A stretch of 16,154 bases of DNA, from the IMG/VR virus record IMGVR_UViG_3300045988_120504, positions 1-16,154 of that record; one strand, given 5' to 3'. Shown here piece by piece: positions 1-14,455 of the stretch. The notes under the pieces are model-generated. The model saw only the letters and a program-made list of their open reading frames with translations, was not told the origin of the DNA and did no database searches. The stretch is from a virus. A program made the translations under genes and the position numbers. Positions within the stretch are counted from its first letter, which is position 1. Each line of letters begins with the position of its first letter.

Positions 1-135
1 CACAACGCCAAGAACGACACAGCCCACACCTCTCTACACCACAACGCCAAGAACGACACAGCCCACACCTCTCTACACCACAACGCCAAGAACGGCACAG
101 CCCACACACGCACTATACCACAACGCCAAGAACAA
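1..135. repeat. Terminal array of about 3.4 copies of a 39-40-bp direct repeat inside the ITR (unit cacaacgccaagaacgacacagcccacacctctctacac); CA-rich on the 5' strand
   Basis: Copies at 1-39 and 40-78 are identical. The copy at 79-118 is diverged (…gaacggcacagcccacacacgcactatac). A partial fourth copy lies at 119-~135. The array begins at nucleotide 1, the genome end. Confidence 0.9.
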
Positions 136-208
136 CACAATAAAATAATGAACTAAAATCCATAGCATTTACCAATGAATAAAATCCAAACAAATTAAAC
201 CAAAGCAC

Positions 209-237
209 TAGACACAAGCGCCAACGCATGGCATAAT
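209..237 (+). promoter_or_regulatory. Sigma70/sigmaA-like promoter inside the left ITR (-35 TAGACA 209-214, 17-bp spacer, extended -10 TGgCATAAT 229-237), preceded by A-tract-rich DNA at 140-200
   Basis: Close hexamer matches (5/6 and 5/6) with a TG extended -10 and ideal 17-bp spacing. It lies about 45 nt upstream of the 282..557 gene. A GGAG/AGGAAA RBS sits at 268-279. Confidence 0.55.
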
Positions 238-281
238 GTAATTGTTCGGAAGGGAACAGACTTTACGGAGATTTAGGAAAG

Positions 282-557
282 ATGTACACCACTAAGAAAT
301 TTACCATTGCTGAGCTCAAAGCAAAGAACGCAATTTGCCCCGGTACTATCGTTGACGGCTATACATATGTAGTAACGCGCTACTCTGTAGATGCTAGCGA
401 TGATCTTATTCCCGAAGTTTATAAGCAGACTGACATTGCATCGTTTGGCAGTGCAGAAAACGCAGGAGCGTATTGTGTAGCCGCCTACGCACGCGATTTA
501 GATATTAGCAGTGCAATTCAGTACTTCTATAAGGTTCGCGCGGTGGAGGTATACTAA
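282..557 (+). CDS. ITR-encoded hypothetical early protein, 91 aa (copy 1 of 2)
   Basis: ORF directly downstream of the ITR promoter, with an RBS upstream. Its stop overlaps the next gene's ATG (TAATG). An identical copy lies at 15598..15873(-). No motif recognised. Confidence 0.6.
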   Translation: MYTTKKFTIAELKAKNAICPGTIVDGYTYVVTRYSVDASDDLIPEVYKQTDIASFGSAENAGAYCVAAYARDLDISSAIQYFYKVRAVEVY

Positions 558-736
558 TGACCAAGCAACTAATAGCCGCAATAGCCTTTACCCTCCTTTG
601 CTGCCTACTAATGGCGCTAGGCTGGTATGTGGGTGGCATTGTTGGCGGCCTAATCTGGTGCGCTGCCCTCCCCTGCGGAATGATTGGCATTGGGTGGCTG
701 CTAAGCCTGGTAATTAATATGGATGGGTGGTTTTAA
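557..736 (+). CDS. ITR-encoded small membrane protein, 59 aa, two predicted TM helices (MTKQLIAAIAFTLLCCLLMALGWYVGGIVGGLIWCAALPCGMIGIGWLLSLVINMDGWF), copy 1 of 2
   Basis: Not in the ORF track because it is under 60 aa. A strong SD (GGAGGT at 545-550) lies 6 nt before the ATG at 557, and the ATG overlaps the upstream stop. The protein is very hydrophobic with GxxxG-like motifs. The alternative-frame ORFs 511..717(+) and 505..690(-) look like nonsense (R/W/P-rich). Confidence 0.55.
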   Translation: MTKQLIAAIAFTLLCCLLMALGWYVGGIVGGLIWCAALPCGMIGIGWLLSLVINMDGWF

Positions 737-739
737 AAA

Positions 740-1012
740 ATGCAAGAAGTTTGGAAGTTCCATAATCATACAGTCTATTTAATTTGCGAATACGTGAATA
801 AAGGCAATTATGTATTCACGGCAAAACCAGCAGACTTAGATAGTGCTGAAGCCGCTAAAGCGCTAACGAAACTTTCTTTACATTTACGAACTATTGGCCT
901 TACCGATCGTGGAATTTTTAGGGCAATGCCAAAAATCCTAGCAGAAGCGCCAGGCTGGCATTTAGCTAATCAAAAGGTTTGGCAATCTAGTGATGATAGA
1001 TTTAGGTATTAG
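740..1012 (+). CDS. Hypothetical protein, 90 aa; its ATG sits exactly at the ITR/unique-sequence boundary
   Basis: ORF continuing the left-end plus-strand operon. The start ATGC at 740-743 is the last ITR nucleotides. It converges on the ATPase gene, with 21 bp between the two stop codons. Confidence 0.45.
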   Translation: MQEVWKFHNHTVYLICEYVNKGNYVFTAKPADLDSAEAAKALTKLSLHLRTIGLTDRGIFRAMPKILAEAPGWHLANQKVWQSSDDRFRY

Positions 1013-1033
1013 CCTAATAGCGCTAGGTATTAT

Positions 1034-2074
1034 TTAACGTAACCCAAGCATTCGCAACATCTTTAAAAATCCCTCGCGAGTGGCGTTGTTCTCAAACCGA
1101 ACAACGCCGTTACCATATAATCTGCCAATCTGACGTGCAAACTTCCCGGCTGATTCAACCAGGTACATATTTGGCCTATGATCCTCGGTCGTAAGCGAAT
1201 AAACTAAACCACCTTTAGGCGATTTACGATTCACATAAAACAAGCCGTTTGAGTTGTCAAGCCAAACGGCATAAACATTGCCGCAATATTTAAATCCATA
1301 GCGGTATTTTGCGTTAGCAGTTTTCTTTGCAATGAACAAATCATTTGAAGCCGCAAACTCATTATCGATCATGACTTTTTCCAACGCCGTACCGGCAATA
1401 ACCTTGCCCACCAGCGTATCGCGCTCGCTTTGCGCAAATGCAGCGTCTTTAATGTGATGCAAAAGCACTGTTTTATTGTTATGCCAGGAATAGCCAGGCT
1501 TAGGCTCGTCGGTAATGCCAAGCCACAAAAACGCAGGATTGACCAGGTCAACGGCGTTAGATAGTAAATACAGTTGGCAATCGTCACGTTTACGACCAAT
1601 GGTTTTCCATAATTTAAAAAGCTTGCCCATATCGTCGTACAGATAGCCTGGAGGTGTTTTTACCTCTCGAATGTATTCATCAAAAATTAGCCGCTTAACG
1701 CGCGGGTACGCAGTTCCCTTGTAAGTGCCTTGCTTGCTCAACGCGAAGAAGTGGCAACACACTTGCCAATTTGGTTTAGCCTTGCCAGATGGTTTTTTAG
1801 AAATGTAGCCGTGTTCTTTGTCTGTCTTAAAAATATATCCTGGGAATTCCTCATGATCAACAAGGTCATCAAAAAAGTTTGCAGCCGCCTTTTTAAGCTC
1901 GGTTTCGTAGCGGCGAATCCATCCGAATTCTTTACCGCTTTTGATAAATTCCTTTACGCCTTGATACGTAAAACTATAGGTTTTACCAATAGAATTACCA
2001 CCAACGGCAATGGTCATAGGTGCGTTATACGATAACGTCTTTTCCATATATTTTTGCAAATAAAAATCAGCCAT
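1034..2074 (-). CDS. DNA packaging ATPase (phi29 gp16-like encapsidation protein), 346 aa
   Basis: Walker A motif VGGNSIGKT. Motifs WIRRYETELKK, AYPRVKRLIFDEYIRE, LLSNAVDLVNPAFL and YSLTTED align with the phi29 gp16 motifs (IGARGIGKS, YVRRYKPELAK, AYPNVSTIVFDEFIRE, CLSNAVSVVNPYFL, YTLTTDD) as I remember them. The ATG overlaps the upstream stop (TAATG at 2072-2076). Confidence 0.9.
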   Translation of the reverse strand: MADFYLQKYMEKTLSYNAPMTIAVGGNSIGKTYSFTYQGVKEFIKSGKEFGWIRRYETELKKAAANFFDDLVDHEEFPGYIFKTDKEHGYISKKPSGKAKPNWQVCCHFFALSKQGTYKGTAYPRVKRLIFDEYIREVKTPPGYLYDDMGKLFKLWKTIGRKRDDCQLYLLSNAVDLVNPAFLWLGITDEPKPGYSWHNNKTVLLHHIKDAAFAQSERDTLVGKVIAGTALEKVMIDNEFAASNDLFIAKKTANAKYRYGFKYCGNVYAVWLDNSNGLFYVNRKSPKGGLVYSLTTEDHRPNMYLVESAGKFARQIGRLYGNGVVRFENNATREGFLKMLRMLGLR

Positions 2075-3366
2075 TATAGATAACGCCTAATCCACCATGT
2101 ACATTTGTTCGATAAATAATTAGCTGGGTCGGTTTTCAGCCATGGGCCTTTAGGGTGGCTTCCGCCGCCGTGGCCCATGATCTGACCATTGCCCACGTAT
2201 AATTCAACATGCCCAACGCCTGATTCATCCGCTGAACCGCCCCATGATATTAGCACCAGATCGGCTAATTGCATCTTATCAAACGGTAAGTTTTTACCCT
2301 TGCCATGTGTAATTAGAGTTCCTTTGCTGCTCATGTCACCCGTCCAGGTGCCTACATTGATACCAGTAATTTGCTTATAGGCTGCGTAAATTGTAGAGCT
2401 GCAATCCCCTACCCCACTGTTTACCGGGTCGAGCCTTCCCGCGCCTTGCGAATACTGAAATTTACCCTCCCAGGACTTATACAACTCAACAACCTTGCGC
2501 GCGGCATCGCTGCCCGTGTCGTTTCCCTGGTCAGTGGTGGCATTATCGGTGCTGTTGGGATGCCCATTTACATTTGCCGACGGTGCCCAAATGTTAGGCC
2601 CCATTTTTTGGCACACCAAGCCATTAGTAAAGCCAGAAAGGCCAAAAATAACCAATTCGTTATTAACAAGTTGACAATAACTAACTTGGCTGGCTTGCTG
2701 CTCCGATTGTGTAGGGGAATCCCCACCAGATTCAACGTCGCCAACTTGCCCAAAATAAGGCGGCGCACTGTTACCGTCCCAATCCTTTAGCATGTCATAT
2801 GTTCGGTTATAACGGTTCTTGTATTTGCCCAGAACGCCATTATTCAAAACCGTGTTACGCATTGTTTCAAGCGTAGCATTACCGCCGCACGCTCTAAGCA
2901 CCTGACCAGCGCTGCGGGGGCTTTGGTGGTACATGCAAGCAGCAAAAACAAGCGTTTGCGGCCTATCCTGCGATAGACCGAACTTTTCCAGAGCCGGAAC
3001 ATACTCATTTTGAAATTGGTCGAACCATTTTTGTTGCTGCGTTTTATGGTTCGCGTCACGCTTTGCGAACTCTACCCACGCATTAGCTTCGCTATCGGTC
3101 AAATATCGCGAAGTCCACCAATTCCAACTATCTCCGTGCGCATCTACGTCAGCGTCTAATTGAGGGGCCGCCGCTTTAAAAGCGGCGTACCCCTCGGGAT
3201 CACCAGTTCGCAGCATTTTTAGCAGATTTGACGCATTTTGCCCGTATTCCTGCATCATGCCAATGGTGATAGGATCGACGCGGTAAACGCCTCCCCAATT
3301 GTGCTCTGACTCTACCGCGCCAATTACGTACATTGCGTATAATGATGTGTTTGCAAGTGTGGGCAT
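2074..3366 (-). CDS. Tail-associated peptidoglycan hydrolase (phi29 gp13-like morphogenesis/tail lysin): lysozyme-like N-terminal domain plus C-terminal NlpC/P60-type cysteine peptidase, 430 aa
   Basis: The N-terminus GAVESEHNWGG resembles the catalytic-Glu region of the gp13 lysozyme-like domain (GNMQSEST). The C-terminus has GDCSSTIYAAY...HVELYVGNGQIMGHGG, a Cys...His NlpC/P60 signature. It occupies the gp13 position between the fiber and the ATPase. TAATG overlap at 3364-3368. Confidence 0.7.
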   Translation of the reverse strand: MPTLANTSLYAMYVIGAVESEHNWGGVYRVDPITIGMMQEYGQNASNLLKMLRTGDPEGYAAFKAAAPQLDADVDAHGDSWNWWTSRYLTDSEANAWVEFAKRDANHKTQQQKWFDQFQNEYVPALEKFGLSQDRPQTLVFAACMYHQSPRSAGQVLRACGGNATLETMRNTVLNNGVLGKYKNRYNRTYDMLKDWDGNSAPPYFGQVGDVESGGDSPTQSEQQASQVSYCQLVNNELVIFGLSGFTNGLVCQKMGPNIWAPSANVNGHPNSTDNATTDQGNDTGSDAARKVVELYKSWEGKFQYSQGAGRLDPVNSGVGDCSSTIYAAYKQITGINVGTWTGDMSSKGTLITHGKGKNLPFDKMQLADLVLISWGGSADESGVGHVELYVGNGQIMGHGGGSHPKGPWLKTDPANYLSNKCTWWIRRYL

Positions 3367-4136
3367 TAGCTAATTGAGAACGTTGCACTAGCATTACCGT
3401 ATGTAATGCTCTTATCGCCGATGCCGTTACCATCAAGGTAAAGCACACCATCAGTGCCTACGTAAAGGTTGGTTACCCAACTGTTGTTTTGGCAAAAAGC
3501 TTCGCTATTACTGGCAACAGTCCAATACAGTGCTGCGCTTGGAATAGATAGCGCAGTAGTTGGCGCATAGCCCATGTAATACAGTGGGATGCCAGTATTT
3601 TTAGAAGTGCCTGGAATTGTGCGTTTTGCACTTTTCACGGCTGAATTGGCGGCGTAATTATATTGTTTTGTCTCGCGGGTTCCAACAAATCCGTAAAACT
3701 CGCAATGTTTGCCATCATCGCTAACGCGGCATTCTTGTGCAGTTTCTACTGTATCCTTCCAAGGGTTATCGGGGTGAATTGAAGCAGCTTGTAGGTTAAC
3801 AATGCCCTCAAGCGTTTTTACACGTGAAGTTGCTTCGCGCGCTTCGGATAGCGCGCCGTTTGCAGTGGTGTTTGCCGTAGTTGCCGCCGATTTCGCGGTT
3901 GCTGCCGCGGCGCTCGCTGCGTCTGCCGTGCCGCTGGCCTTTACTGCTTCGGTCTGTGCTTCGGTAGCTACCTTATTAGCGTTCGTTACCTGCGTTCGAA
4001 TCGCGGAAATATCCCCCTGCGTTGCAAGCGTTCCCATAGCAGAATCAGCAGCAGTTGCAAGCGAGTTCATATCATTAACAATTGAAATAGGGGATGCGCC
4101 GTTTATAAGTGGCAAATTGAAATTCGGGGTAGGCAT
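3366..4136 (-). CDS. Tail fiber / appendage-like protein with Ala-rich coiled-coil stalk, 256 aa
   Basis: Conserved N-terminal MPTPNFNLPLING, followed by about 100 aa of A/T/S-rich heptad-like sequence (AAAATAKSAATTANTTANGALSEAREATSRVKTLEG). It sits where phi29 has the gp12 appendage. TAATG overlap with the upstream gene at 4134-4138. Confidence 0.45.
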   Translation of the reverse strand: MPTPNFNLPLINGASPISIVNDMNSLATAADSAMGTLATQGDISAIRTQVTNANKVATEAQTEAVKASGTADAASAAAATAKSAATTANTTANGALSEAREATSRVKTLEGIVNLQAASIHPDNPWKDTVETAQECRVSDDGKHCEFYGFVGTRETKQYNYAANSAVKSAKRTIPGTSKNTGIPLYYMGYAPTTALSIPSAALYWTVASNSEAFCQNNSWVTNLYVGTDGVLYLDGNGIGDKSITYGNASATFSIS

Positions 4137-4984
4137 TATAAATTCTCCTTATAACCAAGAACGCCGTTCGCGTCCATTTCACCGTAAGTCGTAAAAATAG
4201 AAGGCGAATAATCATAACCAGGTTCAACATCTTGCATTGCTGCCGCTGGGGTTATTGCGCAGTTCAAAGCGTCATTAAACATTGCAATAAGTGATGCATC
4301 TTTCTTAGCCTTTTCGCACGCGTTTTTAAGAACGAAACGCCCATAAAAGTCAAGCGAGAAATAGCAAATTTCATCAGTAGTCGCGAATTCAGCCGTAACC
4401 ATTCGGCCCACAGCGTCTGGCGCGGGAGCAGGGTAAAGTGTTGCCCGCCCGGTCATTGCACCATCACGGTTTGCAAATGAACCATATGTTAGCCCGTCAA
4501 GATCATTATACGATAGATATTGATCGGTCTGCGCCGTGCCGTGCGCGGTTGCTTCGCCTATACCAAGGTAATCAATATCGGCATATGTTGCCGCGAAGGG
4601 GCGGCACGCGTCAAAAATTTGCCGGAATGCGACCTGGTGATAATCATAACTACCCGTTATAGGATTATGAACCAGGAACAAACCAGCGGTAATATTCTTG
4701 ATCTGCTCTTGCAGGTGGGAATCCCCCGCTTCCCAACCGCTTCGCAAATCGTTGATCTGCCCTTGCAAATCAGCATCAAGCTCGCTAATAGCTTTATTCA
4801 ATTCTTCATCATTAATGCCAGAATCATTTACCGCCATTAGCGCCTGGAGCAGCCAATTAATTTGATCCTCTAACCGGATCGCCCTTTTCCATGAAGGGGG
4901 TAAAGGATACTGAAATCCTTGATATGCAAAGTCTAAACCTGTTAGACCATCGAAAACAGCCATATTAAAATCCCTCATCATCAT
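4136..4984 (-). CDS. Structural protein of unknown function (282 aa from the MMM start; the ATG at 4963 with a GAGGGA SD gives 275 aa and is the more likely start)
   Basis: Long ORF inside the structural gene block, between lower collar and fiber. No motif recognised. The internal ATG at 4963 lies 1 nt after the upstream gene's TAA and is preceded by GAGGGA with a 7-nt spacer. Confidence 0.5.
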   Translation of the reverse strand: MMMRDFNMAVFDGLTGLDFAYQGFQYPLPPSWKRAIRLEDQINWLLQALMAVNDSGINDEELNKAISELDADLQGQINDLRSGWEAGDSHLQEQIKNITAGLFLVHNPITGSYDYHQVAFRQIFDACRPFAATYADIDYLGIGEATAHGTAQTDQYLSYNDLDGLTYGSFANRDGAMTGRATLYPAPAPDAVGRMVTAEFATTDEICYFSLDFYGRFVLKNACEKAKKDASLIAMFNDALNCAITPAAAMQDVEPGYDYSPSIFTTYGEMDANGVLGYKENL

Positions 4985-5537
4985 AGAGTTGATTAAACAA
5001 TGGCTCTAAGCCATTAAATACTAGGTATAGTGCATTGTTAACACCAGTGAGCCACTTTGTCAACACTTCGGCGGCTTGTCCCTGCGTTCCTTTATGTGTG
5101 CTTGTGCTTTTGCCCTGATCAGTCCCCCTCCCCGTGTTATCGGTTAGATTGGTAGCGTAATCTTTAGCGCCTGATAATTGCGCCTGTGGCGTTGCGCTGA
5201 AAATTTGCCGCGCGCTGCTGTTCGATTCAGACGAACTAATGTTCGTATCCTCTGTGCTGTAAGTAGCCATAATATCTAGCTTCTCATTTGCAAGCGCCGC
5301 AAAGATCGGATTAATTACTGGCATCATTTCGCGCATACGCCTATTAAGATAGGCCACAAATAGCGCTGGGGTGTCCTGCGCGATTTTTCGAAACTCGAAA
5401 TGATCATAGATTTTGTTTTGAAGTTCTTCGCGCTCTGATTCATCCCAAATAGGATAAGGTCTAGCTGCGTCCCAAAGGTCATTGCCGTACAAATGTACGA
5501 CATCTCGCAAAGTTGGTGCATCGTCTGCTATTAGCAT
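4965..5537 (-). CDS. Putative lower collar / tail tube protein (gp11 position), about 190 aa (ORF extends to a TTG at 5555; the ATG at 5537 with a GGAGA SD is preferred)
   Basis: Called by position, immediately downstream of the portal in the conserved phi29 order capsid, tail knob, connector, lower collar. No strong motif. Confidence 0.45.
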   Translation of the reverse strand: MLIADDAPTLRDVVHLYGNDLWDAARPYPIWDESEREELQNKIYDHFEFRKIAQDTPALFVAYLNRRMREMMPVINPIFAALANEKLDIMATYSTEDTNISSSESNSSARQIFSATPQAQLSGAKDYATNLTDNTGRGTDQGKSTSTHKGTQGQAAEVLTKWLTGVNNALYLVFNGLEPLFNQLYDDEGF

Positions 5538-5541
5538 TGTT

Positions 5542-6525
5542 TTATTCTCCGTCAATATCTTTATTAGGCATTACTTCGGGCGCTTCTGCTTCGCGCAAAT
5601 GCGGTACTGACCACGATACATCAATAGGCGCGTCGAGGTAATCAGCAAAAACAACGTTAGCCACTTTGCAAAATTCTTTTCGGCACTTTAGGCGCGAATT
5701 GCGCATCAACATAACCTGTTCGTTATTAGATAAAACTTCCTGGGTATTGACGCGCTCGCGCTTATCGGTATTGGCATTGTCAGCGCCTAAAAACGTGATC
5801 GCTTCATCGAGTATACGCTTTTTAGCATCAAGCAATTTATCAGCGACAAAAGGCGCGTTAGTGTTTAGTACCTCATAGTTTACAATGTCAGTCATTCCGC
5901 TATTTTGGCTGATGAACTGCTTATTGTTTTTAAGGTCCTTTATAATGCCCTTTTTGGTCGCTTTTGCTTCTTCTGGTCCGGTAATGATCCATGGCGTTTT
6001 TTGCGCCCCAACATTAATATCAATAGTGCGGTCAATTGCTGCAAGGCGCTTTGCATAATTGCTGATGAATCCGCTTAGCGGCGTTCGCATCATATTATCG
6101 AAAAGCATAACGGCATCGCGTGGCATCACTTCATTTTCTGCGTTGACCCAAAAATTACAATGGCGCTGCCAATACTGGCCTGCTGGCGAAAACAGGTTGA
6201 TTTTATTTGGATTGTAAAACATGTTGATGTTTTCAGCTGGTGCGGCTTGCGCAAAAAGAACGCCGCCGCTTTCTGTAAATAAAGCGCCCATCCCATAGTA
6301 AAGTAGGATATATTCAATAGCGCGTGGATCAATGCCAGCTGGTACGTTTTCCCAGGTAAAGCCAGCAATTGCGATGTTTTCTAGGTACGTGCGCCAAAAA
6401 CGATACTGCAATTGGTCATATGCCTGTGCACTGTCTAGCAGTTCGCGAACATGTTTTTTTCCTAGCATCAACTCTGATTCATCAATCCATACGGATTGCG
6501 CATAGTCTGGTAAGCTAGTGCTCAT
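5542..6525 (-). CDS. Head-tail connector / portal protein (phi29 gp10-like upper collar), 327 aa
   Basis: [21 protein letters not shown] aligns with gp10 [34 protein letters not shown] aligns with [33 protein letters not shown] aligns with [22 protein letters not shown]. TAATG overlap with the tail knob gene at 6523-6527. Confidence 0.85.
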   Translation of the reverse strand: [327 protein letters not shown]

Positions 6526-8585
6526 TATTTCACCTCTCTATCGTATCCATAAATCCCTTGAATAGGTGCGTTATCCGCTCCGTAGGTACGTCCTATATCT
6601 CCAGGGTTTCGCCACACGGTAACGCCTTTTTCAAAAATGCCGCGAATAGCATTTTTAACGCCCTCATCAGCAGTGGAGCAGATAATAGACGTATCAAGCA
6701 TCTTCCAATACGTGTATTTTTCCATGCACATAAAGTCTTTTTGTGGCACTAGGTATTGGCGAATCGCATAGCCGTATTTCAGAAAGTAGTTACCCACAAT
6801 TTCCTGCATCTGTGTGGTAATCGTTTTATATCTGATCTGTACGATCATCATACCATTTGAAAGATTAAAACCGTCTCCCGCCATCTGCCCCGATTGGCTC
6901 GGCTGCGTCAGCGCGGCATCCTGAACCGTGGCATCAATTCCAGCGACGGCGTTTTGATAATCGCCCTTGGCTGCCCAGTCTGATAAATTTTTGTTCTGGT
7001 CAGCAAATTGCCCAGCTAGTTGCTGGTTATTTTGGAACTGCAAATTAGACGCAACTAAATTAGTAGCTCCACCGGCAACGCCCATTAGAACACCTGCGGG
7101 GTTTCCAGCCATACCACTAGAAAGCGCAGACAGACCCATATTAATGCCTTGCTGTATGTTGCTAATAGACTGGTTAGCCTGGTTGTTAGCTAGCTGTTGT
7201 TGTGCCTGGTCATACGTCAATTGATTACCCGCTAAGCTTTTTTGCTGCGACCATCCAGCGGCATTGTAGCTAAATTGGCGGCGGTTGGTTGTGCTTGCTA
7301 GATAATTAACGTACTCATCATTAACGATTGACATTTGCGGAAAGGATTGAAACCAGATAGCCGCATCGAGCCAATAGCCGTAGTTAACTTCATGAGTTTT
7401 TTCGGAATATTGCCCCTCGGTGTAGTCCATTGTATAATAGCCGGCTTTTCCGTAGCCAGAATCGCCACCCGCTTCGCCGTAATGCGCAGGGAAAAAAGCA
7501 ATTTTCTGGTATGGCGGTGCAGCGCAAGCCATTTGCTTTAACGTCAATTTTTTATCATTTACCATTTCAGGCTTTAGCAATAAAGAATTGCCTTGGTAAT
7601 TAACAATTTCAATAACAGAGTAAGGAAAGCATTTTAGCTTATCTACGAATTTAAAATCATCGTTCGTAAGTCTGTCGAGCTGGTCTAGAATTGGCTCGTC
7701 AGAAGTAAAATACACGCCCTCGTCTGGAGTATCGCCTAAAAAGTGCGCATCAATGCCGTTTAGTGACACACTGGGGCCATCAGTCAGAACTGTTTTTGGG
7801 AATGCAGAAATAGAAACGATCCCTTTTGCCACCCACGGAGCATCGCGAACTTTTTTCATAAATTCCGAATAATCCCACGATTCAATAGCGTAGACGTTGC
7901 AACCGCTTGCTAGTCCGTCAGTCATTTGACCATCAGCAGTTTTAAGCGATGGATTATCGCGTGTCCCCCAATCGGCTGCAAGGTCGGTATTGCTTTGTAC
8001 GATAACAGCCCATTTTTTGGCGCTCAAATCGAACATTTCAGCTCGCGAAATGGTGTACTCGCTACCAACGTCCAGCCCTTCGCTTGCAACGCCAAATATG
8101 CGCATTGTCTCGGCAGTATTGTATTTTCCTGATTCCAATCGGTTATGCATTGCAGCCATTGCCAAATGCCCACGCTCAACAAAGCAAACACCCAAACGGA
8201 ATTGCCATAAATATGTTTGGAAAACGTCAAGCTGCAAAGTAAGTGCGGTAGTGGACGGATTCAGCATAGCCGCGCCTTCAATAAAGTAATAGAAGCGCGG
8301 CGGAGTTACATCGTCGGGATCATCAGTTTTAGGATTATCGACAATTAGATAATTATAGGTATAAGCCATGTGGAAAGGAACATCAATATTGATAGGCTCA
8401 TTTGGTTTCAAATAGGTGTAATTATCTAAAACGATTGATTCACTTTTAAGTGAGTCAAAATATTCGTTTCGCTTCTCAGGCGATTCAAAAGAAACAACAT
8501 CCTTATATGAATCGTCCCACGCAACGCGGCAAAGCGTTACGCGGGACTGAATCGCCCAACTAAACGGAGTTACGTTAGTTGGCAT
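6525..8585 (-). CDS. Tail knob / distal tube protein (phi29 gp9-like), about 686 aa; ATG at 8585 preferred over GTG at 8594
   Basis: The N-terminal layout (…RVAWDDSYKDVVSFESPEKRNEYF…YLIVDN…FYYFIEGAAM) parallels the gp9 N-terminus (RILADVPFSNDYKNTRWF…YIMFQNADYGNKWFYAF). It contains a long Q/N/G-rich, partly hydrophobic insert like the membrane-active gp9 loop. It sits in the gp9 position after the capsid gene. An AGGGAGA SD lies 9 nt before the 8585 ATG. Confidence 0.7.
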   Translation of the reverse strand: MPTNVTPFSWAIQSRVTLCRVAWDDSYKDVVSFESPEKRNEYFDSLKSESIVLDNYTYLKPNEPINIDVPFHMAYTYNYLIVDNPKTDDPDDVTPPRFYYFIEGAAMLNPSTTALTLQLDVFQTYLWQFRLGVCFVERGHLAMAAMHNRLESGKYNTAETMRIFGVASEGLDVGSEYTISRAEMFDLSAKKWAVIVQSNTDLAADWGTRDNPSLKTADGQMTDGLASGCNVYAIESWDYSEFMKKVRDAPWVAKGIVSISAFPKTVLTDGPSVSLNGIDAHFLGDTPDEGVYFTSDEPILDQLDRLTNDDFKFVDKLKCFPYSVIEIVNYQGNSLLLKPEMVNDKKLTLKQMACAAPPYQKIAFFPAHYGEAGGDSGYGKAGYYTMDYTEGQYSEKTHEVNYGYWLDAAIWFQSFPQMSIVNDEYVNYLASTTNRRQFSYNAAGWSQQKSLAGNQLTYDQAQQQLANNQANQSISNIQQGINMGLSALSSGMAGNPAGVLMGVAGGATNLVASNLQFQNNQQLAGQFADQNKNLSDWAAKGDYQNAVAGIDATVQDAALTQPSQSGQMAGDGFNLSNGMMIVQIRYKTITTQMQEIVGNYFLKYGYAIRQYLVPQKDFMCMEKYTYWKMLDTSIICSTADEGVKNAIRGIFEKGVTVWRNPGDIGRTYGADNAPIQGIYGYDREVK

Positions 8586-8599
8586 ATTTAGCACTCTCC

Positions 8600-9982
8600 C
8601 TAGGCTTTAGCTGCAAGGACAATGTTAGCAGACTTCTTATTATCAGCATTCGAAATTGCCGTAACCGTGATACTGGCATACTTGCTATTTTCGGAAATGT
8701 GCAAAACTCCCATACGGTCGATATAAGTACCAGTGTCAGGAAGTACAACATTCCAAACGCCTGTCTTCGCGTCTTCTACAGTCTGACCAGTGATAATAGT
8801 ATACGCGCGACCGTCAGTAGACAAATCAGAATATTTTACCACGGTATCAAGCGCGATTTCTGCGCCAGGTTCAACCACCTTGTTTTCTGCCACGGGATCA
8901 TGCAATGTAACGGTAACCGTGGTAACCGTTCGAGCGGGAGCCGCCGTGATATTGCTCTCCTCTGTAGTAGACAGAAGCAAGGCATTACGCATTGGCGAAG
9001 CACTGTACACGCCCCAATGGTGGTAGTAATAATCAAGGTCAAGCGTAGCAGGATTATAGATAGAAGCGCTCTTAATTTTGGTATCAGTGCAAACATAAAA
9101 ATCACGATCAAGCAATGCAACATCTACGCCAGGGATATTGAAATCATCAATAACAACGGTTCGATCAGCAATAAAGTTTGCCTTATCCATGTTGAAAGCA
9201 GCAGCCAAAACGGACACGTCGAAGTTTGCAAAGAAACGGGGAGTGCCCATAAGCACCAGCTCATCGCTCGTAACCTGCATACCAGCGTTGTTATAACGCG
9301 TGTTATAGAAGTTTTTCATCTGCAAATAGTGCTCGCGAAGTGCTGCCGCAATTCCCTCACCAGCAACGCGCTTATCGTCTGCCGTAATACTATTGTCGAA
9401 CATATCGGGCACGCGAACGGTAGCCATTCCCTCACTGTCGTGAACCTTGCGCAAAATATCGCGCATGATCAGGTATTCGTCGTTTTCGTCTGACTGCTGC
9501 GGGAGTGCAAGCAAACTATTTATAAATGCGGAAAGTTGGCCATCCTGCACGAAAGCCTCTTCGAGCATATCCTCATTAAGTCGCAGATCGTAGCGATCGC
9601 GGCGATTAACGCTGTGGTAAATAGCCTTTACGTCTGGTTTTTCTGCCCCAAATACGTTTGTGTCGTTAGGGTCATATGCCTTAGCTTTAATTAGATTTGC
9701 CCCGATTTCCTGGACAATGCCGCCATAGGCCATTGCACCAGTTTTGAACGGCTTCAAGCGATTTTCGAATGAATTCGTTCTGAAAAGCGTAAGGCCGATA
9801 CGCTGGACAAGCACCTGAATGAACTCATTCCAAAGAAGAGAATTTTCTTGCAAAAGTGCGAGCGTCTTAGTCAAATTGTTATCAGTAATCTCGGGAATAC
9901 GCGCGCGATACTGCTCACTGGCATTGTTTCGCACTGCATTAATAATTGCGGCGTTGGTTGCCGCGACCTTGCTAGCTGCCAT
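8600..9982 (-). CDS. Major capsid protein (phi29 gp8-like) with C-terminal Big2-like Ig domain, 460 aa
   Basis: Size is close to gp8 (448 aa) and it immediately follows the scaffold gene. The C-terminal about 100 aa (TVTVTLHDPVAENKVVEPGAEIALDTVVKYSDLSTDGRAYTIITGQTV…ITVTAISN) reads like a BIG2 beta-sandwich, as in phi29 gp8. Strong SD AAGGAGA. Confidence 0.8.
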   Translation of the reverse strand: MAASKVAATNAAIINAVRNNASEQYRARIPEITDNNLTKTLALLQENSLLWNEFIQVLVQRIGLTLFRTNSFENRLKPFKTGAMAYGGIVQEIGANLIKAKAYDPNDTNVFGAEKPDVKAIYHSVNRRDRYDLRLNEDMLEEAFVQDGQLSAFINSLLALPQQSDENDEYLIMRDILRKVHDSEGMATVRVPDMFDNSITADDKRVAGEGIAAALREHYLQMKNFYNTRYNNAGMQVTSDELVLMGTPRFFANFDVSVLAAAFNMDKANFIADRTVVIDDFNIPGVDVALLDRDFYVCTDTKIKSASIYNPATLDLDYYYHHWGVYSASPMRNALLLSTTEESNITAAPARTVTTVTVTLHDPVAENKVVEPGAEIALDTVVKYSDLSTDGRAYTIITGQTVEDAKTGVWNVVLPDTGTYIDRMGVLHISENSKYASITVTAISNADNKKSANIVLAAKA

Positions 9983-9984
9983 TA

Positions 9985-10278
9985 TTAATTCTCCTTATCT
10001 GCGAAAAGATCATCAATGGACTTCTCTGCAATTTCTTCCTGCGATTCTTCGGATTCGCCGCCATCGTCAGGCGCGGGAGCAGTTGCGGCAACCATCAGCT
10101 CATAATTTCGTGCGGCAACTTCCTGATATTTGTGCTCGGCTTCGGTAAGCTTTTCCTCAAGTTCGGAAAGTCTGGCCTGCATTCCTGCCGAAAGATCGGC
10201 CACGCCCTGGGACACACCAGCACGCCATTCGGACAAATCTTCAATTTCGTCCATTGCAAGAAATTCATCTAGCGTCAT
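9985..10278 (-). CDS. Scaffolding protein (phi29 gp7-like), 97 aa, acidic helical/coiled-coil
   Basis: 97 aa (gp7 is 98 aa), highly acidic with heptad-like LSELEEKLTEAEHKYQEVAARNYEL. It lies directly upstream of the capsid gene. SD AAGGAGG. Confidence 0.6.
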   Translation of the reverse strand: MTLDEFLAMDEIEDLSEWRAGVSQGVADLSAGMQARLSELEEKLTEAEHKYQEVAARNYELMVAATAPAPDDGGESEESQEEIAEKSIDDLFADKEN

Positions 10279-10302
10279 TGGTTTTCCTCCTTATAAAAAT
10301 AT

Positions 10303-10340
10303 CCCCTGGTCTATAGCCTTTAGGCATGACCAGGGGATTT
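10303..10340 (-). terminator. Rho-independent terminator on the minus strand downstream of the endolysin (9-bp GC-rich stem cccctggtc/gaccagggg, loop with an inner mini-hairpin, then a U-run from rc …gaccaggggatattttta)
   Basis: The inverted repeat is seen directly. On the minus strand the stem is followed by AUAUUUUUAU and then the scaffold RBS AAGGAGG. Confidence 0.55.
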
Positions 10341-10480
10341 AAAGGTCAAGCGCGGCAATTCCGCGAACGCTGATTAAAAAGCCTTGCACTGCTCGTTATG
10401 TAAGGATACCTCACGGTATTGCATTCCTTAATAACTACTCACCAGCGCAGGGGGTGCGCACGCTTAATTGCTTTATAGCA

Positions 10481-11518
10481 CTAACCAAACAATTTTGCAA
10501 ACGTATTTTTGCCTGCAATACCATCAGCGCTAAGCCCGTGATCGGCTTGGTACTGGCGAACTGCTGAATAAGTACCCCCGCCAAAAATACCATCAAAACC
10601 GTTAGTATCGTAACCATTGCAGATCAAAGCGCCCTGAAGCACCTTAGTAATATTGCCCCTTGCGCCTTTGCGCACATTGACACAAGCCGCGCGAGTTTTT
10701 GGCCCCCAAATTCCATCTACAGCAAGGCCCTTGCCAAACTGTTTATTCAGCTCGCTTTGCAAAACCTTTAGCAAAGCGCGCTTAGTGTTTGGGCCGTAAA
10801 TCCCATCAGGCGTTGAGCCTGCCCAAGCTTGCACGTTCGCAACATCGCAAATAGCGGGGGCGGTCGGTTCAGGCGTTGGCGTAGGTTCTGGCGTTACCGG
10901 TGCGCCACTTCCTGCCGAGATCTTCTCCCATGCTGCGCGGTCAAGCTGCGCATAGTTGCGATCAGTAGCGCCATTAGACGAGGAATATTGCCAAATAGTC
11001 CACGTTTTCCACGGGTCTGTGCCGTATCTAAAACTAGGCATATCCCATGAATTGCGGTAATCGGGATAACCAGCAATCCACAAGCCGCAATCATCCGCGC
11101 AGTTCGCCGCCTGGCTTCGCGCAGAAGCTTGAACGTAGATCAAGCACCATACGCCCGTCAATTCGTGGATTTTGTCCACAAAGCGGCGGCACCAGTTAGA
11201 ATCGCCCCAAGCCTTATTCTGGATTGATTCCCAATCAAGGCAGGGAATACCCTTGCCAAAATACCCCCTGCACTGATCATAGAAAAATTCAGCTTCTGCA
11301 ATAGGATCGTTACCGCCGGCATAGTGGTAAAAACCCCACATTTTGCCATCTGCTTTGCAGCGGTTAATAATAGCGTCGCACTGCCTATGCACATACGTAA
11401 CGCCCTGCGTTGCCTTTACAATTACAAAATCAGAATCACGGTAACAATTTTCAGTGTTAGCCTTAAATTCCGAGCCGTTAAAATTGTCGTGGCTCGATAC
11501 GTCAATACCTTTAATCAT
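10481..11518 (-). CDS. Endolysin: N-terminal GH25 muramidase plus Pro/Thr linker plus C-terminal PG_binding_1 repeats, 345 aa
   Basis: MIKGIDVSSH… and the CLDWE (DxE) motif are typical of GH25 lysozymes. Linker PVTPEPTPTPEPTAP. Repeats DGIYGPNTKRALLKVLQ, DGIWGPKTRAA, DGIFGGGTYSAVRQYQADHGLSADGIAGKNTFAKL match the PG_binding_1 consensus. Its start overlaps the holin end by 8 nt. Confidence 0.9.
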   Translation of the reverse strand: MIKGIDVSSHDNFNGSEFKANTENCYRDSDFVIVKATQGVTYVHRQCDAIINRCKADGKMWGFYHYAGGNDPIAEAEFFYDQCRGYFGKGIPCLDWESIQNKAWGDSNWCRRFVDKIHELTGVWCLIYVQASARSQAANCADDCGLWIAGYPDYRNSWDMPSFRYGTDPWKTWTIWQYSSSNGATDRNYAQLDRAAWEKISAGSGAPVTPEPTPTPEPTAPAICDVANVQAWAGSTPDGIYGPNTKRALLKVLQSELNKQFGKGLAVDGIWGPKTRAACVNVRKGARGNITKVLQGALICNGYDTNGFDGIFGGGTYSAVRQYQADHGLSADGIAGKNTFAKLFG

Positions 11519-11876
11519 CGTTTTTGCTCTCCTTTAGCTTCAAAAGTGCTGCTAGTGGCGAATCTCTCAATTCGGGCGATAGCGTACACAAATTCTCAAA
11601 AATTGAAATTGCTTCGGTGATAATCACGTACACGCAAACACCGCCGAAAATGGCGTTGAATGACGTTGGCAAAAGGTCATAAGTAACCGCCAATTGACAA
11701 CCGTATCCGAGCGCCATAGCACCGATAAACCCAGCCTTATGCCACAAGCCAAGCCTCATTTTAGTGCTATCTAATTCCCTATTTTTAATCGCTTTAATCA
11801 TGCCTGAAAGATAATCAGCCACGATAAAGCAAAGGCAAAAAACGGCGGCGATTCCGTCACTACCCAAAATGTCCAT
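11511..11876 (-). CDS. Holin, Phage_holin_4_1 (TcdE/LL-H-like) family, 121 aa (internal start of the 174-aa track ORF)
   Basis: ADYLSGMIKAIKNRELDSTKMRLGLWHKAG and EAISIFENL match the hallmark D-x-ITG-x-KA…S-K…G and SIlEN motifs of this holin family. Three hydrophobic segments. SD AAGGAGGT lies 4-5 nt before the ATG at 11876. The 53-aa N-terminal extension in the track overlaps the polymerase in another frame. Confidence 0.85.
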   Translation of the reverse strand: MDILGSDGIAAVFCLCFIVADYLSGMIKAIKNRELDSTKMRLGLWHKAGFIGAMALGYGCQLAVTYDLLPTSFNAIFGGVCVYVIITEAISIFENLCTLSPELRDSPLAALLKLKESKNDD

Positions 11877-11886
11877 TCTGACCTCC

Positions 11887-13632
11887 TTATCTAATCGAGA
11901 ATGGTCTCGGCACAAGTATAACGCCGCCTTTAACTGCTTGTGGTACGATTTTCCACCTAGATTTATCACGGTAAATTTCAGGCACATTTTCACATTTTTC
12001 AAAATCCGTGGTAAAGCCAGGGTGAAAATCCTCAATCCTCATAATCTGCTTAAGCGGTTCAACCATTCCCGCGCAAGTGTACGCCCACGGTTTGACGATC
12101 AAATTACCGTTTTTGTCGTGAGTGTATTCCGCTTCTGCATATGTTTTTGCGCGTAAGCAAACGCAGTCCGCAAATGCCGCTTCCAAATCCCAATAGCCTA
12201 GTTTTTTAGAATCAATAAGAATATCGCTCGGTATTTCTGATCCAATAAAATGTATTGAATCGGTGTCGGAATAGATAAACCGATCGCCAAATTTTAGCGC
12301 CGTCCTAATAGTGTAATCACGCGCCCACGCAGTTACAAAAATTCCGACTGGCAAATATACTGGTCTACGCTCTGTTTCCTCACCCATAACGTAATGTACA
12401 ATACCATCAGAATCAAGGCGTGGCACCTTGCCACGCACTTTAATTTTTTGCGCGTATTTTCCATATGCGTTATTTAGCCACAGTTTCCAATTCATGCGTT
12501 CACCTGGGCTTTTAGCGTTCATTTTGCCTACCATACCAGCATCAACATACTCTTTGAAAAGGCCAGTAACTCCGCGAAAATAGTACGTAGCGCCGTATGC
12601 TATTACGTCTACCGCATAGCACTCATTTATCAATGCCCAATCAACATTGGTGAGCATCATCGTAATAGGCTCGTCTATATCGGTCTGATATTCGCGAGCA
12701 TTAAAAAATAGACTTCCTTTTACCTGAATGCAAGGCAATTTTCCGTTTTTCAAATGCGCCGAAAAGGTTATTTCACTTATCCATAGGGGATATTTTTCAC
12801 TTTTTATAGGCTTACCAGGTTGCAAAAGTGGCTTACCTACCGGTAAGCATCTATCATGCATTACAAATGGGTATAAGCTATTTACATCAATTCGCCCACC
12901 TTCGCCTAAATGTTTATTTACATGCCTAGGGTTTGCGAACACGTAGCCACCTCGGTATGCTTTGCGCAGTATTGAATCTAGCTCGCTATCAAGCTCGGGA
13001 AACTTCACGCGCCATTGGCGTTTACCGAATAGGTCTTTTAATGCCGCTAAGCAGTCTGCACCAGTGGTTAGTTTTTCGCCCAAGTCGAATCGGTGATCAA
13101 GCGCTTTAGCCAGAATCAAAACATCACGGCGAAGATAATCCAATTCAAGAGCGGTCAAAATATGCCCTGGTTCACGGTAGGCGTTATAGTCTATTTCGCC
13201 TTTGGTCATTTCCAGCCCATACGCTCCTGCTACATTTGCGAGCGTCATAGGTAGTTTTTTATAGCTGTCTGCAATTTCAAAAGTAGAACATTCGTTCATA
13301 ATTTGCATATGGTAGAACTTGCCTAAACTATCCATCAACAAGGTAAATTCTCCAGCGCCTGGCTCGCGTTCCTCGGTATGCTTATAGCCATTTATTAGCA
13401 GCCACGAAATTATGAATTTAGTATCAAAGCCAGCGTTATGAAACCAATAGCGGCCTGGATGATCAAACGCCCAATTCATAAATGATTCTATGCTAGTCCC
13501 ATATTCAAATAGGCCATCGGTATTAGCGCCAACCGGGGCAACTCCCCATGCCCATACGGGATTGACTGCGCAACCCTCCGCGCTCGTGTTGGTTTCAAAA
13601 TCTGCCGAATATTCAATAACAGACTGTTTCAT
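11887..13632 (-). CDS. Protein-primed family-B DNA polymerase (phi29 gp2-like), 581 aa
   Basis: Exo I YSADFETNT (phi29 YSCDFETTT). Exo II FHNAGFDTKFIISWL. Exo III YLRRDVLILAKAL. Motif A DVNSLYPFVMH. Motif B KLWLNNAYGKY. Motif C YSDTDSIHF. KxY LRAKTY. ATGA overlap with the terminal protein gene. Confidence 0.95.
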   Translation of the reverse strand: MKQSVIEYSADFETNTSAEGCAVNPVWAWGVAPVGANTDGLFEYGTSIESFMNWAFDHPGRYWFHNAGFDTKFIISWLLINGYKHTEEREPGAGEFTLLMDSLGKFYHMQIMNECSTFEIADSYKKLPMTLANVAGAYGLEMTKGEIDYNAYREPGHILTALELDYLRRDVLILAKALDHRFDLGEKLTTGADCLAALKDLFGKRQWRVKFPELDSELDSILRKAYRGGYVFANPRHVNKHLGEGGRIDVNSLYPFVMHDRCLPVGKPLLQPGKPIKSEKYPLWISEITFSAHLKNGKLPCIQVKGSLFFNAREYQTDIDEPITMMLTNVDWALINECYAVDVIAYGATYYFRGVTGLFKEYVDAGMVGKMNAKSPGERMNWKLWLNNAYGKYAQKIKVRGKVPRLDSDGIVHYVMGEETERRPVYLPVGIFVTAWARDYTIRTALKFGDRFIYSDTDSIHFIGSEIPSDILIDSKKLGYWDLEAAFADCVCLRAKTYAEAEYTHDKNGNLIVKPWAYTCAGMVEPLKQIMRIEDFHPGFTTDFEKCENVPEIYRDKSRWKIVPQAVKGGVILVPRPFSIR

Positions 13633-14438
13633 TTTCCGATAAATTGCAAAAGTTCTTTTAGTGCGGTTTCGTTTGCAGTTGATTCTTCATCGGTGGGGGA
13701 GCGGTAACCCTTCTCGTATTCAGCTTCATACTGCCACGTATCTACGACTACGCTAAAATCAGTGTAATAATGCAGATAAGCTAGCTCGTCTGTGGTAAGT
13801 TCGCCTATTCTATCTAACACAGATTCAGATATGCCGTTTTCTTTTAACTTGTTAATGACAGCCTGTCTGTAATGCGTTAGTCTATCAATGCCAAGCGCAG
13901 ACGTAACGCGCAGCTTAATAGCCGCGTAAGTTGATTTTGCGCCTGGTTTAAATTCCGTTTCACGAATTACGGGCTTTATGGCACTAAAGCGCCCGTCATC
14001 CACGGCGTATTCCATGGGCGATTCTACATAATCAATGTTGCGCACTTGTGAATCAGGAATATTAGCCAAAACAGATTCGCGAATGCCTGTCAATTTAGCC
14101 GCATTCTCCGACCTAATAACGTTTAATTCAGCTTCTTCCAGACGCCGTTGCCATAATTCAGTGCTCATAATTGGCGTTCCCTCGCGCTGGATTACAACCT
14201 CGGTACCACGGTTAAAAGTGTATGCGTTTTCACGTGCGTTAAATTCGCGCAACTTCTGCGCATACTGTCGTTTTTCAACCGCACTCATACCTTTTAGCTC
14301 GGCAGCGGGAATAACTGGATTAAATGCGGCTGAAATTTGCGCATTGATTGCACCTTTTTTGCGCAAGCGGTATAATTTGTTACGGGCATTCTTTTGCAAG
14401 CGCGAAACTTCTTTGTCTAACTCGGTTCGCTTCTTCAT
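13629..14438 (-). CDS. Terminal protein (phi29 gp3-like), about 269 aa (track ORF extends to 14477; the ATG at 14438 after TTAGGAGGGGCA is preferred)
   Basis: Called by position, immediately 5' of and overlapping the protein-primed polymerase gene, as gp3-gp2 in phi29. The size matches the 266-aa TP. The genome has ITRs. Basic N-terminal region and a Ser/Thr/Tyr-rich C-terminal region. No direct motif match available. Confidence 0.65.
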   Translation of the reverse strand: MKKRTELDKEVSRLQKNARNKLYRLRKKGAINAQISAAFNPVIPAAELKGMSAVEKRQYAQKLREFNARENAYTFNRGTEVVIQREGTPIMSTELWQRRLEEAELNVIRSENAAKLTGIRESVLANIPDSQVRNIDYVESPMEYAVDDGRFSAIKPVIRETEFKPGAKSTYAAIKLRVTSALGIDRLTHYRQAVINKLKENGISESVLDRIGELTTDELAYLHYYTDFSVVVDTWQYEAEYEKGYRSPTDEESTANETALKELLQFIGK

Positions 14439-14455
14439 TGCCCCTCCTAATCTCC

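Follow-up and report, generated by a model that had tools for sequence, protein, structure and literature searches.

Two complete genes inside the long inverted terminal repeats of a phi29-type human-gut phage, probably duplicated when one end of the genome was copied to the opposite end

The stretch of DNA analysed here, referred to below as the window (16,154 nt), is the near-complete 16.2-kb genome of a human-gut podophage of the phi29 type, with protein-primed replication. Its polymerase (Pol) matches the DNA_pol_B_2 family expected of such Salasmaviridae-like phages (PF03175; E = 9.5e-49), and a phi29-type morphogenesis and packaging set is likewise present (PF05894, 1.1e-52; PF05352, 4.1e-43; PF20934, 3e-12; PF25622, 2.5e-77), with Pfam matches to the gp16 ATPase, gp10 connector, gp9 tail knob, phi29 MCP, PolB_2 and phi29 SSB. 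The nearest deposited polymerases, at about 40 % identity, are those of Actinomyces phage Av-1 and of Curtobacterium, Arthrobacter and Bacillus phi29-like phages, with Lactococcus phage asccphi28, Mycoplasma phage P1 and Streptococcus phage Cp-1 falling outside the top matches, and no deposited phage was matched by the window as a whole in megablast. The gene order is that of Av-1 and Cp-1, in which small inward-reading genes lie opposite the replication-gene end. A 282-aa ORF, the putative terminal-protein (TP) gene, directly precedes pol, an arrangement also seen in Av-1, Cp-1 and the Curtobacterium phages, but has no family match in Pfam or PHROGs. An Rfam scan of the full window (E ≤ 1) matched neither a pRNA nor any other RNA, which makes a pRNA less likely, although one may still be present given how fast these RNAs diverge. 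The features of the two genome ends are listed in Table 1.

Table 1. Terminal features of the window, from left to right
Feature	Position	Strand	Remarks
ITR left arm	1-743	+	Exact; outer tip truncated in the window contig
39-bp tandem array	1-139, mirrored at 16016-16154	+	Tandem Repeats Finder (TRF); 3.5 copies in the window, 4.2 in L034
ITR promoter-like site, left	209-237	+	TAGACA-17-(TG)gCATAAT; consensus scan
p91, left copy	282-557	+	91 aa, acidic, pI 4.9; clade-restricted ORFan
p59, left copy	557-736	+	59 aa; hydrophobic residues 5-53
p90L	740-1012	+	First unique left-end gene; converges on the packaging ATPase gene (1034-2074, -)
Left junction/microhomology	740-750	+	ATGC/AAGAAGT, start of p90L
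Putative terminal-protein gene	13629-14477	-	282-aa ORF
Terminator-like hairpin	14490-14513	-	10-bp stem and T run; separates the SSB and putative terminal-protein genes
Unique right early operon, inward of the ITR	14529-15415	-	p66R 15215-15415, p85R 14967-15224, phi29-type SSB 14529-14960
Right junction/microhomology	15405-15415	-	ATGC/CAAGAGT, start of p66R
ITR right arm	15412-16154	-	Exact reverse complement of 1-743
p59, right copy	15419-15598	-	Identical to the left copy; missing in all relatives examined
p91, right copy	15598-15873	-	Identical to the left copy
ITR promoter-like site, right	15918-15946	-	Mirror of the left copy; sole sigma70-like - strand site in 9900-16154

Base-by-base comparison of the two ends delimits an inverted terminal repeat (ITR) of exactly 743 nt, while a repeat-finding program returns 750 nt because the 7 nt beyond the ITR are nearly identical. 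The inner end (...TGGTTTTAAAAAATGC) takes in the stop codon of p59 as well as the ATG and the following C of the next gene on each side, this being p90L on the left and p66R on the right. At the outer end the window begins inside a C-rich, G-poor 39-bp tandem array, whose copy arrangement varies among independent assemblies and which lies between the promoter and a missing terminal origin segment. This conserved segment of ~80 nt is present in the relatives and in L034, an independently obtained contig of this lineage that extends 98 nt further, and thus the true ITR in the window lineage is probably at least 841 nt long. Even at the 743 nt or more seen in the window, it is the longest among ten deposited genomes measured. 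The 100 % identity of the arms is partly built in, as an assembler passes one repeat node twice, and small differences between the arms are possible.

The two genes within the repeat are joined by a TAATG overlap, and are thus coupled, with GGAGG positioned 8 nt upstream of the p59 start codon. Homologues of p91 (22, at 67-91 % identity; dN/dS 0.27) and of p59 (73-93 % identity; dN/dS 0.19 over 45 pairs) indicate that both are real genes under purifying selection. Residues 5-53 of p59 are hydrophobic, with a Gly-rich centre, as would fit a probable two-helix membrane hairpin. Neither protein had been thought to carry a recognisable motif, and this was borne out: no match was found in PHROGs or Pfam, tblastn against phages gave nothing meaningful, and no homologues were detectable outside the clade of the window. 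The remote homology search recommended in the original prediction was taken further for p91. Its alignment profile, searched against 1.84 billion representatives, recovered six clusters, of which five comprise short proteins or fragments (33-105 aa) with clade-like matches and the sixth is a weak, repetitive match to a 766-aa protein, while an AlphaFold2 model built on the 22-sequence alignment reached a mean pLDDT of 44, too low for a fold search.

A promoter-like site precedes p91 in each arm. It agrees with the consensus at 10 of 12 positions, has TG at -15/-14 (extended -10), and is the only + strand match in positions 1-1100. In the relatives the promoter, 5'UTR and Shine-Dalgarno (SD) sequence are kept at both ends wherever the contigs reach there, and consensus match and conservation together predict an inward, sigma70-like early promoter in each arm. 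A scan of the - strand from 9900 to 16154 found no sigma70-like promoter belonging to the p66R-p85R-SSB operon itself. Since the ITR promoter is the sole such site upstream of these right early genes, they would depend on it, and TP-Pol would probably do so too, via read-through. The proposal that each end carries a promoter and two genes, and that these are the first genes read inward from either end, is in keeping with these data: both genes are real, and p91 and p59 are promoter-proximal in both directions and would be the first transcribed from the predicted promoter.

The original prediction named an assembly artefact as what would overturn it, and metagenomic ITRs are indeed known to include artefacts (PMC9610469). 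A mis-join, a hairpin chimera or the collapse of two strains could have produced the repeat without any single genome having p91-p59 at both ends; the arms of the window are identical by construction, and the 'ITRs' of three IMG/VR relatives are exactly 99 nt long. These last are assembler k-mer stubs of longer repeats, which is the expected product of a true longer inverted repeat, while 743 is not a k value. Furthermore, five other human-gut assemblies (ENA), made with k119, k127 and other assemblers, each yielded the ITR as a contig of its own (744-841 bp) that ends at exactly position 743. An independent contig (ERZ918921 k127_122553) of 14,922 bp, equal to 16154 - 2 x 743 + 2 x 127, matches positions 617-15538 of the window with three mismatches, covering the whole unique core, identical 127-nt stubs and both junctions. 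The 4-11 nt shared by the sequences at the junction fall well short of every k used and so could not have caused a graph mis-join. With the boundary and both junctions reproduced by independent assemblies, the artefact reading is considered very improbable and was dropped, and the claim of a long coding ITR, hundreds of bp in length and present at both genome ends, stands. From the contig structure, a twofold coverage of the repeat and the linkage of both junctions on single molecules would also be expected. In total the lineage was found in at least six samples. A single nucleotide difference (G603T) shared by two independent ITR contigs was entertained as a sign of concerted evolution of the arms, and was set aside because bubble-popping by the assembler could mask a difference between them.

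Among the relatives, the genes of the repeat occur singly. Based on tblastn, p59 is confined to the left end in eight relatives and p91 in two. Taken over nine close relatives and nine further right ends, p59 is single-copy at the left and p91 is absent or left-only, most clade members lacking it. Among ten further right ends, p59 precedes p66R in that of the window lineage alone. The duplication of p91-p59 is, across these genomes, lineage-specific, and the answer to the question of whether the ITR genes are always duplicated is no. As the genes are single-copy at one end in the relatives, the donor and recipient ends can be told apart, and in every informative case the left end has been copied to the right. 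A right end of putatively ancestral type, with an 81-aa gene before p66R, exists in this clade: the 81-aa gene is found directly upstream of p66R in L073 and in L066 and L071 (69-75 % identical), with a truncated remnant in the same position in L068. Two contigs encode a p66R with 97 % identity to that of the window. Probing with a 20-mer of the 5'UTR yielded already known contigs only in IMG/VR, and two partial relatives in the JGI metagenomes, together with one unrelated 23-kb contig that was taken as a chance match.

Although the unique core is conserved, close relatives differ in where the repeat ends on its inner side. Full-length relatives have exact ITRs of 266, 445 and 513 nt, others show 99-nt k-mer stubs, and together with the window the boundaries fall at 266, 445, 513 and 743 nt and at no fewer than four other positions, at Pol identities of 93-95 %. 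The boundary differs in nearly every genome and is always located at a short microhomology of 4-11 nt. For example, it coincides with the first ATG in relatives 126105, 145071 and 104897, and lies 36-38 nt into the first gene in 130525, 100619 and 082664, resulting in chimeric ORFs. In relative 117268 the ITR ends after the whole of a 74-aa gene and so includes one complete gene, while in 107894 this gene is seen only as a 3' end on a truncated contig. The first-gene position is itself variable, being occupied by alternative small genes (p91, or genes of 74 or 80 aa).

The reading preferred here, with a probability of roughly 0.8, is that terminal recombination or template switching widened a promoter-bearing ITR over two genes, thereby displacing an accessory gene from the right end. 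The ITRs of the clade span several hundred bp, and where the ends are complete each arm contains the conserved terminal origin segment and the early promoter with its 5'UTR, SD and ATG, in some cases together with a tandem array specific to the lineage. The microhomology ATGC(C)AAGA(A)GT is common to the start codons of p90L and p66R, and a single recombination event or replication template switch at this site would have attached sequence from the left end to the right one, lengthening the repeat inward by ~460 nt. What stands before this p66R start in close relatives is the end of the 81-aa gene (...GCGTGGTAAAT/ATGCCAAGAGTAACA), and it is this accessory gene that the copies of p91 and p59 from the left end would have replaced, with p66R left intact. 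The sequence fits both a template switch and recombination between molecules as the copying mechanism.

Long terminal repeats with a promoter in each arm have precedents among related phages. The ITRs of asccphi28 (577 bp) and Mycoplasma phage P1 (350 bp) have an annotated inward promoter in each arm, as is predicted for the window. Together with Cp-1 (236 bp) and Av-1 (~210 bp, imperfect), these two are phi29-type protein-primed podophages like the window, all with repeats hundreds of bp in length. The P1 repeat stops at the first base of the orf1 start codon, much as that of relative 126105 stops a few bases into the start codon of its first gene. However, no complete annotated CDS is situated within the repeat in any of these four phages, whereas the window has two complete genes under purifying selection there and so departs from the non-coding repeat of the asccphi28/P1 type. 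The contrast drawn initially with phi29 (6 bp) and Cp-1 thus holds as regards a coding ITR, but the comparison set was incomplete in leaving out asccphi28 and P1. A duplicated terminal promoter was already known from the latter two, and it is the inclusion of whole genes in the repeat that is new. The ITR of phi29 is 6 bp long, and transcription of the phi29 replication genes runs toward the other end and not inward from it. The early operon at the right end of phi29 (promoter C2; genes 17 and 16.x) is the positional analogue of the left-end operon of the window, both consisting of a terminal promoter and small early genes that are read inward and converge on the late-operon end, although p91, p59 and p90L have no sequence similarity to phi29 proteins (tblastn, Pfam, PHROGs).

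Comparable remodelling of genome ends occurs further afield. Laboratory adenovirus variants carry a left-end duplication at the right end, shifts of the ITR boundary in poxviruses duplicate host-interaction genes, and in fungal linear plasmids the long terminal repeats contain the beginnings of ORFs. Protein-primed strand-displacement replication is common to adenovirus and these plasmids, and offers panhandle and template-switch routes for the copying of ends. All resemble the clade of the window in that the inner boundary shifts and genes become diploid as it moves inward. The clade differs in host domain and virus lineage, and in that the events are natural and recur within one narrow clade, at microhomologies of 4-11 nt and from left to right in every informative case. 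A literature search returned no direct report of gene-containing ITRs in phi29-like phages, nor of the adenovirus left-end duplications.

The placement of p91 and p59 could alternatively have been selected, such that both proteins are made at once and in double dose whichever end enters the cell, with DNA entry, membrane anchoring of replication and anti-defence as guesses at their roles. Their promoter-proximal position at both ends and the purifying selection on them fit this view, as do the recurrence of the lineage in several human-gut samples and a first-gene slot that is a hotspot of alternative small genes, as is typical of host-interaction loci. The left-end operon is also equivalent in position, on the gene order generally given for phi29, to the right-end early operon encoding the entry protein p17, an early protein required for the second step of the two-step entry of phi29 DNA (PMC2771126). 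Against this, all other clade members examined do with a single, left-end p59 and most do without p91, and the promoter is duplicated without p91 and p59 in relatives whose contigs reach both ends. The idea of expression whichever end enters first is thus not favoured, the promoter being at both ends already when p59 is single-copy at the left, as in the close relatives and nine of the further right ends, and p91 is absent or left-only. Entry in the phi29 model system is, moreover, polar, and according to Gonzalez-Huici and colleagues (2004) reportedly proceeds right end first. Neither homology nor a confident structure ties p91 or p59 to any function. The many boundary positions, some of which leave truncated chimeric ORFs, point to haphazard, recurrent end-copying with tolerated outcomes and not to a designed cassette, and selection for the placement as such is regarded as unlikely. 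Under the preferred reading of end-copying, the duplication would be a by-product of gene conversion that recurs at the genome ends, tolerated and perhaps of slight advantage. Its presence in at least six samples is compatible with a selective advantage, and a purely neutral model does not explain the one-way, left-to-right transfer. A further, rather doubtful possibility is that end-copying is frequent, directional and intrinsic to protein-primed replication, constituting an exchange of early accessory cassettes, and that the two-gene ITR was kept for an advantageous dose of p91 and p59 from both ends. If so, this dose might serve counter-defence, DNA entry or, through equivalent ends, a relaxed polarity of packaging and ejection.

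The window is in itself an interesting but unsurprising instance of a known end-copying process. Its clade provides a natural series of ITR boundaries, numbering at least eight among phages with 93-95 % identical polymerases, which displays the remodelling of protein-primed phage ends through microhomology junctions, always from left to right, and thus opens the maintenance and expansion of ITRs in phi29-like phages to comparative study. For viromics, a genome of this kind comes out of De Bruijn assemblers as two pieces, a short repeat contig and a core contig bounded by k-mer "ITRs", and ITR-based completeness calls thus understate genome length and miss terminal genes. The promoter-proximal slots of the ITR are hotspots of small, fast-turnover early genes, which are natural candidates for host takeover and anti-defence in an abundant group of uncultured gut phages.

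The ends of the window form an exact inverted repeat of 743 nt (arm identity in any assembled contig being partly by construction), while an automated repeat search returned 750 nt, since the seven following nucleotides are near-identical. Each arm contains a tandem array, a promoter-like site and two ORFs coding for 91-aa (p91) and 59-aa (p59) proteins, and the original prediction of a long coding inverted terminal repeat (ITR), with a promoter and two genes at both genome ends, was correct. The repeat ends with ...TTTTAAAAAATGC, just past the ATG of the next gene on each side, p90L (the first unique gene) on the left and p66R (an early gene) on the right. Based on its gene content, the 16,154 bp window can be assigned as a phi29-type podophage genome. 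A DNA-level search of deposited phages with the window yielded no close relative, and the best matches of its polymerase (Curtobacterium, Arthrobacter, Av-1 and Bacillus phages) are ~40 % identical. Genes are arranged as in Av-1 and Cp-1; in all three, the replication and late genes run in one direction from one end and a few small genes read inward from the other. Contigs encoding proteins identical to those of the window derive from human-gut metagenomes.

Features of the window, and tandem arrays of related IMG/VR genomes (six-digit names) and a retrieved contig (L066)
Genome	Feature	Coordinates	Strand	Remarks
Window	Tandem array	1-139, mirrored 16016-16154		39-bp unit; one per arm
Window	Promoter-like site	209-237		TAGACA-17-CATAAT with extended -10 TG; consensus match; one per arm
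Window	p91	282-557		91-aa ORF; one per arm
Window	p59	557-736		59-aa ORF; one per arm; TAATG overlap with p91, GGAGG preceding
Window	gp16 packaging ATPase	1034-2074	-	
Window	NlpC/P60 tail protein	2074-3366	-	
Window	gp10 connector	5542-6525	-	
Window	gp9 tail knob	6525-8594	-	
Window	phi29-type MCP	8600-9982	-	
Window	GH25 endolysin	10481-11518	-	
Window	Holin			Adjoins endolysin gene
Window	Protein-primed PolB	11887-13632	-	
Window	Putative terminal protein	13629-14477	-	
Window	Terminator-like hairpin	14490-14513	-	10-bp stem, 7 GC pairs, T run
Window	phi29-type SSB	14529-14960	-	
Window	p85R	14967-15224	-	85 aa; apparent TTG start; CxxC motif
104897	Tandem array	2-278		25 bp x11
130525	Tandem array	5-131		Unit ~20-25 bp
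L066	Tandem array	47-132		Unit 41 bp

Five other samples, assembled with differing assemblers and k values, each yielded a short contig (744-841 bp) encoding the exact p91 protein. Position 743 is the exact end of all five of these independent repeat contigs, which is how a de Bruijn graph handles a true repeat with two-way branching. The unique core in one of these samples is a 14,922-bp contig, equal to 16154 - 2x743 + 2x127 for k = 127, with three mismatches to window positions 617-15538. The same 127 nt of repeat occur at its start and end, followed by p90L on one side and p66R on the other, so that independent data contain the two junctions. An assembly artefact, which the original prediction had looked to related genomes to reveal, was not found; the five contig ends and the independent core make it very unlikely on the basis of contig structure. 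The IMG/VR contigs 3300045988_082664, _100619 and _107894 have apparent ITRs of exactly 99 nt, which are k-mer stubs left by the assembler from longer repeats; for contigs of this kind, completeness calls based on ITRs give too short a genome and miss the terminal genes.

The window starts within the tandem array, and the real termini are missing at positions 1 and 16154. An independent repeat contig (L034) continues outward from position 1 for 98 nt. This added stretch is non-repeat sequence with homology to the ends of the 126105, 145071, L066 and L068 contigs, and the true ITR of the window lineage, as seen in L034, would thus measure at least 841 nt. A conserved terminal segment of ~80 nt (…CTTACCCCACTTYCCCCCAAACCGTTC.CGCC.GA.CGTTCATG.CCGACACTTTG.CAC.CGA…), observed in L034:1-98 (same lineage), L068:1-90 and L066:1-90 and in four relatives in all, presumably represents the protein-primed replication origin. 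Between this segment and the promoter lie lineage-specific tandem arrays, all strongly C-rich and G-poor on the inward-reading strand, with none detected in 126105, 145071 and L068. Their arrangement varies from one independent assembly of the window's lineage to another, and one possibility is that they are bound by an origin or nucleoid-type protein.

Judging from their homologues and substitution ratios, p91 and p59 are real genes. There are 22 homologues of p91 (67-91 % identity) and eight clusters of p59 (73-93 %), with median dN/dS values of 0.27 and 0.19, respectively. Neither matches Pfam, PHROGs or deposited phages, in agreement with the lack of recognisable motifs noted previously. 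In line with the remote-homology search proposed for these proteins, a p91 profile search of 1.84 billion representatives recovered six clusters only, and the AlphaFold2 model of p91 (pLDDT 44) provided no reliable fold. Hydrophobic over residues 5-53, with a Gly-rich centre, p59 fits a predicted membrane helical hairpin.

Comparison with nine IMG/VR genomes with polymerases 93-95 % identical to that of the window, and with ten further right ends retrieved via the nearly invariant early gene p85R, indicated that the two genes are not consistently duplicated, the question for which a comparison of related phages had been proposed. All eight relatives reaching that far have a single p59 at the left end, adjoining p90L, while p91 occurs in 2/8, at the left end only; among the ten right ends, p59 precedes p66R in the window lineage only. 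What the clade has in common is a terminal promoter together with its 5'UTR, SD and ATG, found at both ends wherever contigs reach. A 23,288-bp contig (L065; Ga0308160_10002339) shares exactly 20 nt with the conserved 5'UTR motif but otherwise resembles the window in neither DNA nor protein, and was taken as a chance match. The first-gene slot behind the promoter, within the first 300-800 nt of the relatives' left ends, is a hotspot of alternative small genes, occupied by p91 in some genomes and by an unrelated 74-80-aa gene (MK.YAEEVKRNFENRFDAPGYKKAIEWLACFM...) in others, with extra genes of 36-91 aa sometimes inserted ahead of p59.

The inner ITR boundary varies from genome to genome, ending at the first start codon in 126105 (266 nt), 145071 and 104897 (445 nt), 36-38 nt into the first gene, with chimeric ORFs on the right, in 130525 (513 nt), 100619 and 082664, after a 74-aa gene in 117268 (whole gene seen) and 107894 (3' end seen), and after two genes in the window. 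Every boundary falls at a short microhomology between left-end and right-end sequence, such as AATTTTGA and ATGC(C)AAGA(A)GT. Left-end sequence is placed at the right end in all informative cases (the rebuilt contigs 082664, 100619, 130525, 117268 and 107894; L066-L075), and the 81-aa and 64-aa right-end genes were never seen at the left ends of the genomes examined. This bias could reflect selection or a polarity of replication or packaging. Upstream of p66R copies 97 % identical to that of the window lies the 81-aa gene (L073) or, closely following the promoter, its truncated remnant (L068). The 81-aa gene ends ...GCGTGGTAA(A/T)T in L073, and likewise in L066 and L071, which are more distant, and abuts the p66R start codon, where the window reads ...GGGTGGTTTTAAAAA and then ATGCCAAGAGTAACA.

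The structural and evolutionary steps of end-copying can be read from these sequences, any effect on fitness being putative, and for its mechanism we infer a single recombination or replication template switch between the ends, at the microhomology of the p90L and p66R start codons. The left terminal segment (ITR, p91 and p59) would have replaced the right one (ITR and 81-aa gene), lengthening a pre-existing promoter-bearing ITR by ~460 nt. The duplication had been proposed to guarantee p91 and p59 expression whichever genome end enters first. This is unlikely, and the comparative data lend it no support, as relatives lacking the gene duplication nevertheless have the promoter at both ends. 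Entry of phi29 DNA is polar. It takes place in two steps and depends on the early protein p17 (PMC2771126). Besides the ITR promoter, no sigma70-like sites were found on the relevant strand of the right 6 kb, and we infer that this promoter is active and probably drives p91-p59-p66R-p85R-SSB. A strong terminator-like hairpin separates the SSB and putative terminal protein genes, and expression of the latter and the polymerase may thus depend on read-through or an unrecognised promoter. The p85R protein has no match among known families, is 91-100 % identical among relatives with hypervariable neighbours, occurs as an exact sequence in 83 indexed blocks of a public collection, and may have an essential early role as a DNA-binding or replication factor. 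An Rfam scan of the whole window (E <= 1) detected neither pRNA nor any other Rfam family. Packaging of the phi29 type normally requires pRNA; that of Av-1 is annotated in the group of small genes reading inward from the end that lies opposite the replication genes, which would be equivalent to ~740-1030 in the window.

ITRs of 6-30 nt are described for the Bacillus and Clostridium groups (PMC6266182, PMC3362512), and others of 90 nt (PMC11320940) and 176 nt (PMC9331655) have also been published. In the ten deposited phi29-like genomes that were measured, exact repeats are 0-577 nt long, and none of the ten (0/10) contains a complete CDS within the repeat. Inward promoters are annotated in both arms of asccphi28 (577 nt) and Mycoplasma phage P1 (350 nt, stopping at the first base of the orf1 start codon), and duplicated promoters within long ITRs are therefore already known; the repeats of Cp-1 and Av-1 comprise 236 nt and ~210 imperfect nt, respectively, the latter ending at its annotated -35 box. 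Gene-containing ITRs arising from end-to-end copying are familiar in adenovirus variants, poxviruses and fungal linear plasmids. What is new for phi29-like phages is the presence of whole genes inside the ITR, together with a natural series of sliding boundaries. The gene-carrying ITR is thus a well-supported, real and modestly novel feature, valuable chiefly because it documents naturally how ITRs are remodelled in protein-primed phages and points to fast-evolving early genes of an uncultured gut phage clade.
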